Virus record (IMG/VR): IMGVR_UViG_2648501498_000015
From: a virus
Taxonomy: Duplodnaviria > Heunggongvirae > Uroviricota > Caudoviricetes
Length of the DNA stretch: 4,938 nt
Strand: one strand, 5' to 3'
Shown piece by piece: positions 823 to 1,101 of the stretch. Every line of letters starts with the position of its first letter. Position 1 is the stretch's first letter. A program made the position numbers and the translations under genes. The notes below the pieces were generated by a model. The model searched no databases and was not told where the DNA came from. It saw only the letters and a program-made list of their open reading frames with translations.

Positions 823-1101
823 ATGGCACGCAACGTAAAATATTACAATTCTGATAATTCGCCCGTTCTTGCCTGCACGCACGAGCGGTATTCTCACGCA
901 TTCAAGTCTGAATGGTTCCAACACCCTCCATGTACTGAAGAGCAGGCTGAATGGACAATTCAGTGTTACCGCAGGCGCGGATACGAGGTTAAGAAAGCCC
1001 TTAGTCTCGACTACCGTCACTGGATAATCTCCGTCAGGCTTCCTTACTCTGAACGCCCACCGCGTCCGTCTCGCACATTCCAGCAACGCATCTGGAGGTA
1101 A
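823..1101 (+). CDS. hypothetical small protein (92 aa), Cys/His-containing, translationally coupled to the downstream DUF968 gene
   Basis: Shine-Dalgarno GGAGAAAA at 812-819, 7 nt before ATG 823. Stop TAA at 1099-1101 lies one base before the GTG start of the next gene, and its last codons contain that gene's GGAGG. The first ~70 residues look protein-like; the overlapping antisense ORF 763-1284 is Arg/Ser/Thr-rich and looks spurious. Confidence 0.5.
   Translation: MARNVKYYNSDNSPVLACTHERYSHAFKSEWFQHPPCTEEQAEWTIQCYRRRGYEVKKALSLDYRHWIISVRLPYSERPPRPSRTFQQRIWR

Follow-up and report, generated by a model that had tools for sequence, protein, structure and literature searches.

A small phage gene between rem and ydfU: a phrog_1212 family member with a candidate coupling junction to the nuclease gene that follows

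We analyzed a 4,938-nt stretch of viral DNA (IMG/VR record IMGVR_UViG_2648501498_000015; hereafter the window), a lambdoid (Qin-like) prophage segment in which sok/hokD, rem, a small open reading frame (ORF), a ydfU-like DUF968 gene, rusA and Q follow each other in this order. The small ORF (823–1101, + strand) encodes a basic protein of 92 amino acids (aa; isoelectric point [pI] 9.7) and is the long, Escherichia/Shigella form of the phrog_1212 family. Its substitution pattern leaves very little doubt that 823–1101 is a genuine protein-coding gene under purifying selection. As to its role, we lean toward a small basic protein of the ninR module, whose translation would be coupled to that of the following nuclease gene.

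Coding status and annotation of the small ORF

The frame opens with an ATG at 823, runs for 92 codons and closes with a TAA at 1099–1101, filling the gap between rem and ydfU just as a preliminary description of the window had reported. We measured selection as the ratio of nonsynonymous to synonymous substitution rates (dN/dS), using pooled pairwise Nei-Gojobori estimates from ten long-form sequences. Codons 27–92 gave a ratio of 0.107, against 2.70 and 1.75 for the other two frames of the same DNA. In the short branch of the family, the ratio was 0.23 at a dS of 1.14, a distance at which synonymous sites are saturated. All 80 copies found on viral contigs were intact at 92 aa, and these copies comprised 30 protein variants. 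Two E. coli copies were disrupted (loci L015 and L023, from strains ECMA0423 and ECGI0523). Both carry many indels of 1–4 nt, spread across the small ORF and the DUF968 gene alike, which suggests general prophage decay or an indel-prone assembly and not selective loss of the small ORF. Loss of the frame beside intact neighbors was not seen among the copies compared.

Could this strand carry no gene at all, the frame being a chance ORF, a small RNA (sRNA) locus, or the shadow of an antisense ORF of 173 aa (763–1284, − strand)? The gap is empty in the curated MG1655 record, and the calls of PGAP and RAST include an occasional small ORF on the antisense strand. Frame-specific purifying selection argues against such a view, and the antisense frame is interrupted by stops in 27 of 40 distinct variants. 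The preliminary description had also allowed for an sRNA in the gap; no Rfam family matches 823–1101 even at E ≤ 1. The interval contains no intrinsic terminator, and its promoter-like matches are at chance level. Selection and conservation, as read from the alignments, already refute this alternative, and we give it next to no weight.

Two observations concern the same interval. A sigma-70-like site (742–769, TTTGCA-16-TACAAT, 9/12 matches) lies at the 3′ end of rem, immediately before the leader of the small ORF, but such sites are at chance level (2 found versus 0.9 expected). The short antisense ORFs that PGAP or RAST sometimes place over the 5′ end of the gene (L004, 2892–3071, − strand; L007, 2375–2509, − strand) bear the labels "hypothetical protein" and "mobile element protein"; they show no conservation and are probably artefacts.

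The gene is already annotated as a hypothetical protein, and the gap between rem and ydfU is empty only in curated MG1655. Positions 760–1160 of the window are 100% identical to E. coli AMSHJX01, where PGAP calls the same 279-nt coding sequence (CDS) as hypothetical protein WP_032312299.1 and, directly after it, a "DUF968 domain-containing protein". PGAP also calls the ORF in K-12 C600 (WP_012304870.1) and likewise in diverged prophages. Of 5426 complete E. coli genomes, 4513 have a match to the ORF, some of them in as many as 9 copies, and the identical protein, named either "Prophage protein" or "hypothetical protein", is found on 473 public contigs. Between ydfU (b1560) and rem (b1561), the curated MG1655 record (NC_000913.3) is blank, but MG1655 nevertheless has an intact ORF at 1644306–1644584 on the minus strand. 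The ORF had been described as unassigned, which fits the MG1655 record but not other genomes, where it is a PGAP hypothetical protein and a phrog_1212 member. It had also been called overlooked, and this cannot be maintained: the gene is annotated in thousands of RefSeq genomes and in PHROGs, and only MG1655 lacks it. An identity with K-12 ynfO was considered and rejected; ynfO adjoins ydfO and belongs to the YlcI/YnfO family.

Family, long form and predicted fold

A homology search with the product, the first check proposed for it, found the phrog_1212 family. ORF residues 27–92 matched positions 1–66 of the 66-position profile (PHROGs, E = 5.2e-35). By tblastn, the family is present in 64 phage records, including Gifsy-1/2, N15, PY54, mEp237, phiES15 and phages of Klebsiella, Edwardsiella and Erwinia, and homologs down to 35–45% identity occur across Enterobacterales phages. 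An exhaustive profile search over 1.84 billion representatives returned only 106 clusters, typically of 66 aa. Members go by the names Orf QD1 in N15 (UniProt O21966), STM2620.1n and STM1021.1n in Gifsy-1/2, and WP_032312299.1 and WP_012304870.1. The N15 member (locus L006, 2992–3219) is missing from the RefSeq N15 record and present in the older U45242 and in UniProt O21966. Searches of Pfam (zero families at E ≤ 1), NCBIfam and PADLOC gave no match for the product. Longer "fusion" matches, to Rep O, Cro and baseplate J, proved to be one-off chimeras, not domain architectures.

Broad family alignments held no stretch conserved enough to serve as a pattern. The conserved columns in the alignments of 25 and 45 sequences are W/F, [ST]xxEA, Y, RG, L..D, W.V, LP and a basic tail ending in W-x; N15 Orf QD1 has the tail motif as well (...SKTFQQRIWE). 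The window protein thus resembles the other members in its full-length profile match, its core motifs, its ...TFQQRIW tail, its position just before a nuclease gene and its predicted fold. It differs from them in being a long form, with 26 extra N-terminal residues, that is always followed by DUF968.

AlphaFold2, run with the family alignment, predicted a beta-alpha-beta-beta core at residues ∼31–72 (E31–33, H39–52, E55–60, E67–72) with a predicted local distance difference test (pLDDT) score above 90. The core corresponds to conserved codons 27–72 (901–1038, + strand), with a dN/dS of 0.10. Codons 73–92 (1039–1098, + strand) encode an Arg/Pro-rich basic tail that ends in TFQQRIWR, has a pI of 11.8 and is predicted with low confidence; its dN/dS is also 0.10, and its RNA is C-rich and G-poor. 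Residues 1–23 scored below 50 and are predicted to be disordered. Sequence searches of the PDB gave nothing below E = 0.1, whether the query was the protein alone or the profile, and the sole significant match of a structure search in BFVD was N15 Orf QD1 (E = 4e-4). On our reading, the functional unit is a domain of ∼66 aa, made of the beta-alpha-beta-beta core and the Arg-rich tail.

The extension (codons 1–26, 823–900, + strand) is absent from the 66-aa short form, which starts at the equivalent of residue 27. Its dN/dS was 0.64 in frame and 0.58–0.64 over all three frames; by this measure, it is essentially unconstrained. It is also lineage-specific: the 92-aa form turned up in Escherichia, in Shigella and, outside these two, on a single E. 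coli-like contig in a Veillonella metagenome-assembled genome (MAG). That contig (L008, JAGZPX010000007.1) carries this E. coli prophage region, at 97% protein identity, in a MAG labelled Veillonella parvula, probably through a binning error.

Where does the extension come from? The leader, Shine-Dalgarno sequence (SD) and first codons of the small ORF (760–829, + strand, ending in ATGGCAC) form an initiation region that is common to DUF1367 genes of other prophages. Over these 70 nt, the window is 87% identical to RM9513 (L047, 2501–2570), whose corresponding ATG is the start of a DUF1367 gene, and the DUF1367 gene of Gifsy-2 is preceded by a similar GCCACGGAGAAnACCATGGC. In most short-branch loci, DUF1367 lies 4–5 nt upstream of the short form. 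The simplest and most likely history of the long form, judged from these alignments, is a deletion or recombination that would have removed DUF1367 and retained its translation start.

The preliminary description had quoted a peptide with scattered Cys and His residues that might bind metal. The peptide is present in the product, which contains 3 Cys and 4 His in all, but metal binding does not follow from it. Within Escherichia, C18, H20, H25, C48 and H66 are all variable, and the N-terminal extension holds three of these. C37 is the only Cys kept in the 25-sequence alignment and gives way to L, V, I or M in the distant members of the 45-sequence alignment; Y or Q frequently stands in place of H34. 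Across the 45 sequences, not one column of Cys or His is conserved, the product has no CxxC/HxxH spacing, and no zinc-finger family in Pfam matches it at E ≤ 1. The model, moreover, is a plain beta-alpha-beta-beta fold. A small zinc-ribbon-like protein using these residues is thus highly improbable for the window product, and the alignments refute metal binding as a property of the family.

The junction, the genes that follow and the rest of the window

The TAA stop of the small ORF, a single base (C1102) and the GTG start of the DUF968 gene (1103–2152, + strand) form a candidate coupling junction at 1099–1105 (+ strand). The one-base interval had been noted before and is confirmed; the junction TGGAGGTAAcGTG is retained in 78 of 80 relatives, and PGAP chose the same GTG at 1103 in the record that is identical to the window over 760–1160. 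The GGAGG assigned earlier to the ydfU-like gene also stands where it was placed, at 1094–1098 (+ strand) within codons W91–R92 of the small ORF. This SD is strong: its predicted duplex with the anti-SD has an energy of −10.6 kcal/mol, which only 0.6% of window positions reach. The SD of the small ORF itself (GGAG, 812–815, + strand, with a 7-nt spacer to the ATG) had been called strong as well. It is only moderate, because its predicted −6.6 kcal/mol is equalled by 9% of window positions and because its context, CACCGGAGAAAACCG, is kept in 70 of 80 close relatives and degraded to AGAG in 9 of 80.

The last two codons have the same design across the family: TGG is followed by AGG, GGG or GAG, so that the short branch reads TGGGGG and N15 TGGGAG at the position of the DUF968 SD. 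The family therefore carries an SD for whatever gene follows. With the SD supplied by these codons and the stop 1–2 nt from the next start, terminating ribosomes would be delivered to the start of the nuclease gene. A possible hairpin over the DUF968 SD and GTG (1070–1109, + strand; 1070–1076 paired with 1103–1109, and 1078–1083 with 1092–1097) appears in both the minimum free energy and the centroid fold, where these elements would pair with the last ten codons of the ORF. The fold z-score is only −0.86. Over 14 variants, 96.7% of cells were pairable; compensatory changes were absent, and the share did not exceed that of shuffles. The TAA-C-GTG junction, the GGAGG in the last two codons and the possible SD-masking hairpin are all features of coupled phage gene pairs, but the same tight spacing is found between unrelated neighbors in these operons and is no proof of partnership. 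On this geometry, we consider translational coupling to the following nuclease gene fairly probable.

The product of the ydfU-like gene matches Pfam DUF968 (1.1e-76) and phrog_96 ("HNH endonuclease"); residues 160–346 form the DUF968 His-Me-finger (HNH) nuclease domain, preceded by an N-terminal domain. DUF968 is His-Me-finger group 7, and NinG belongs with DUF968/DUF1364 among the His-Me-finger nucleases that have ties to recombination (PMC5714182). A study that describes the ninR region (PMC4118853) presents DUF968 proteins as fusions of an Orf-like domain to HNH.

We surveyed the context of the gene at 42 genome and phage loci, plus distant members taken from contigs. The gap between its stop and the next start was 1–2 nt at 40 of the 42 loci; at the remaining two, both variant copies, the stop is displaced and overlaps the gene that follows. 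The next gene encoded NinG at 16 loci, DUF968 at 14 (all the long-form loci) and YbcO/DUF1364 or a YbcO-like protein of 93–94 aa at 10. RusA, an RNase_T exonuclease followed by Lar (in N15) and an unassigned protein of 139 aa were each found at one locus. Distant members showed the orders NinB-ORF-RusA, RdgC-ORF-Rv2179c-like DEDD exonuclease-Lar and DUF1367-ORF-YbcO-like-RusA-Q. The placement of the gene is the same throughout: it lies upstream of a nuclease gene and Q in the window (ORF-DUF968-RusA-Q) and in 42 other loci, except that in N15 Q lies upstream of the ORF. The gene thus belongs to the ninR recombination module of the early-right operon, where DUF1367, NinB/Orf or RdgC precedes it and a nuclease gene comes directly after it. 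On its other side, rem is absent upstream of the ORF in L004, L007, L012–L014 and all short-branch loci and, on this survey, is not a conserved partner of the phrog_1212 family.

In phage lambda, a small Cys-rich protein, NinF, is encoded directly upstream of ninG/rap in the ninR region. The slot is the same, with an ORF of ∼60 aa before the gene of a structure-specific nuclease, between the replication genes and Q, and the Gifsy-2 family member sits exactly before NinG, as NinF does. However, we detected no sequence relation between the two (no match to Pfam NinF, PF05810, or to any Nin family at E ≤ 1), and the small family has no conserved Cys. By this comparison, NinF is a positional analogue only.

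The other elements of the window were annotated as follows. The first, sok/hokD (1–288), is a hok/sok type I toxin-antitoxin locus, with an Rfam sok match at 1–138 that is cut at the window edge and a hokD-like ORF (Pfam HOK_GEF) that is overlapped by a longer mok-like frame (76–288). The upstream neighbor of the small ORF, rem (505–756, + strand), ends 66 nt before it. Behind the DUF968 gene, rusA (2165–2539, + strand) is followed by the Q antiterminator gene (2536–3357, + strand), whose product has two stretches matching Pfam Antiterm plus a DnaJ-type CXXCXGXG zinc-finger signal. Q is 273 aa long here versus 229 aa in the record that is identical over the small ORF; downstream, therefore, the two differ in their mosaic. 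Unlike L001 and L003, where tRNA genes follow Q, the window has none according to ARAGORN. A TerB-family gene (3551–3957) is broken by an in-frame TAG (3661–3663), and the part after the stop matches Pfam TerB (1.3e-7); PGAP lists its counterpart in related prophages as a pseudogene carrying a stop within the frame. A DUF3927 ORF of 43 aa (3954–4085) comes next. Downstream of the Q region, two Rfam matches exceed the gathering score, the STnc100 sRNA (119 bits) and AgvB, a prophage anti-GcvB sRNA (93 bits). They lie at 4129–4318 (+ strand) and 4282–4343 (− strand), overlapping tail to tail, and a sub-threshold AsxR match falls on the same spot.

Rho-dependent termination and competing explanations

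A terminator "upstream of ydfU" is named among the strongest Rho-dependent terminators of E. coli in PMC9160355. According to the supplement of that study, ydfU is up in nusG and rho mutants and under bicyclomycin (BCM; 2.36, 1.95, 1.40, 2.77 and 1.76), and rem is not up in the same conditions (0.54, 0.41, 0.08, −0.52 and 0.04). Since ydfU rises and rem does not, these values place a Rho-sensitive zone between the two genes, where the small ORF lies. The terminator and our interval agree in position, between rem and ydfU, and in the Rho/NusG sensitivity of the transcripts; the small ORF is also C-rich and G-poor, with a GC skew down to −0.36 (1000–1079). They differ in that the terminator's description in PMC9160355 treats the interval as upstream untranslated sequence, and here it is a conserved coding region.

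The small ORF might then be mainly a regulatory leader, whose translation shields the C-rich mRNA from Rho and unmasks the SD and GTG of the next gene, the peptide being secondary. The terminator, the skew and the predicted hairpin, with its high share of pairable cells, are all consistent with such a role. Yet an irrelevant peptide would not give a dN/dS of 0.10 across 66 codons, the protein is conserved to 35% identity, with synonymous sites saturated in the short branch, and the hairpin shows neither covariation nor an unusual fold z-score. A translation-gated Rho or SD-unmasking role is possible, but because selection acts at the protein level, regulation is not the whole story, and we regard a mainly regulatory ORF as unlikely. 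The leader role and a protein role are not mutually exclusive.

Alternatively, the product could be the dedicated partner of the DUF968/HNH protein, binding YdfU as an inhibitor, immunity factor, activator or specificity subunit, with co-translation setting the stoichiometry. This extends the earlier suggestion of a co-translated partner, of which coupled translation is made plausible by the geometry and dedication is not borne out. In its favor, the one-base junction with its embedded SD is kept in nearly all close relatives, the gene after the long form is always DUF968 (94 of 94 Escherichia/Shigella long-form loci), and the downstream genes across the family mostly encode His-Me-finger nucleases (DUF968, YbcO, NinG). 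Against it, the downstream gene swaps among non-orthologous nucleases, including RusA and DEDD exonucleases with unrelated folds, and both tail sequence types are found with both NinG and YbcO. The reverse association is loose as well. Synteny upstream of DUF968, the second check proposed earlier, holds for the long form and fails in SfIV, Klebsiella ST101-KPC2phi6.3 and Yersinia YeP3, where DUF968 follows unrelated genes with equally tight spacing. Phage records with DUF968 number 186, against 64 with the small family, and in RM9513 DUF1367 is directly followed by DUF1364, without the small gene. We thus found no obligate two-way co-occurrence with DUF968; the family precedes at least six gene types. 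Because the downstream gene varies and DUF968 follows other genes, the small gene is best seen as a mosaic module of the ninR recombination region. By these comparisons it is not a dedicated DUF968 partner, the tight spacing is operon style, and we rate the partner hypothesis as rather improbable. The label "toxin to Rem", found in ON470619 and ON470583, would make the product the toxin of a toxin-antitoxin pair with Rem, and in the window rem does lie a short distance upstream, beside hok/sok. But the literature gives no support for the label, no toxin family matches in PADLOC, Pfam or NCBIfam, the labelled record itself has no rem upstream, and rem is absent from most family contexts; we consider this explanation very unlikely.

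We therefore return to a small basic ninR-module protein coupled to the following nuclease gene. Such a protein would most likely act on nucleic acid or recombination intermediates through its basic tail, and guilt by association together with the free swapping of the downstream gene suggests that it is unlikely to be a subunit dedicated to any single nuclease. A DNA- or recombination-related role, argued by analogy, is held tentatively. Several points weigh against this picture. SfIV gp44/gp45 are also separated by 1 nt; tight spacing is generic in these operons, and therefore geometry alone is no proof of functional coupling. One family member (L134) has a gap of 100 nt to the next gene. PDB, BFVD and profile searches revealed no fold or sequence relative of known function, so that neighborhood and charge are all that speak for a DNA-related role, and N15 Orf QD1 is nearly neutral (pI 8.0). 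As to the history of the long form, DNA similarity to DUF1367 in the ORF and its leader ends after the first 7 coding bases, with none significant beyond. The strong Rho terminator suggests that the mRNA is poorly covered by ribosomes in an uninduced cryptic prophage. Finally, we found no experimental evidence for translation or function of the small ORF in the literature, a search that did not cover start-site profiling supplements.

A bolder version would see phrog_1212 as a portable accessory of recombination nucleases, either a small DNA- or branch-binding cofactor or regulator for whichever nuclease follows (HNH, RusA, DEDD) or a translated attenuator, on which the presence or absence of ribosomes would set whether Rho stops transcription ahead of the nuclease gene. 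We regard it as a long shot, of about the same low probability as a mainly regulatory ORF. If it were true, one of the strongest Rho terminators of K-12 would be a translation-gated switch inside an unannotated gene.

Nothing suggests a new kind of system, and the significance of the gene is modest. Studies that treat the rem–ydfU interval as untranslated, such as that of the strong Rho-dependent "ydfU" terminator, should count it as coding. The K-12 MG1655 gene list could gain a conserved, selected gene of 92 codons between rem and ydfU, on the minus strand at 1644306–1644584, and the family, whose members in lambdoid phages always stand directly in front of recombination nuclease genes, would be a sensible choice for functional work on the ninR module.

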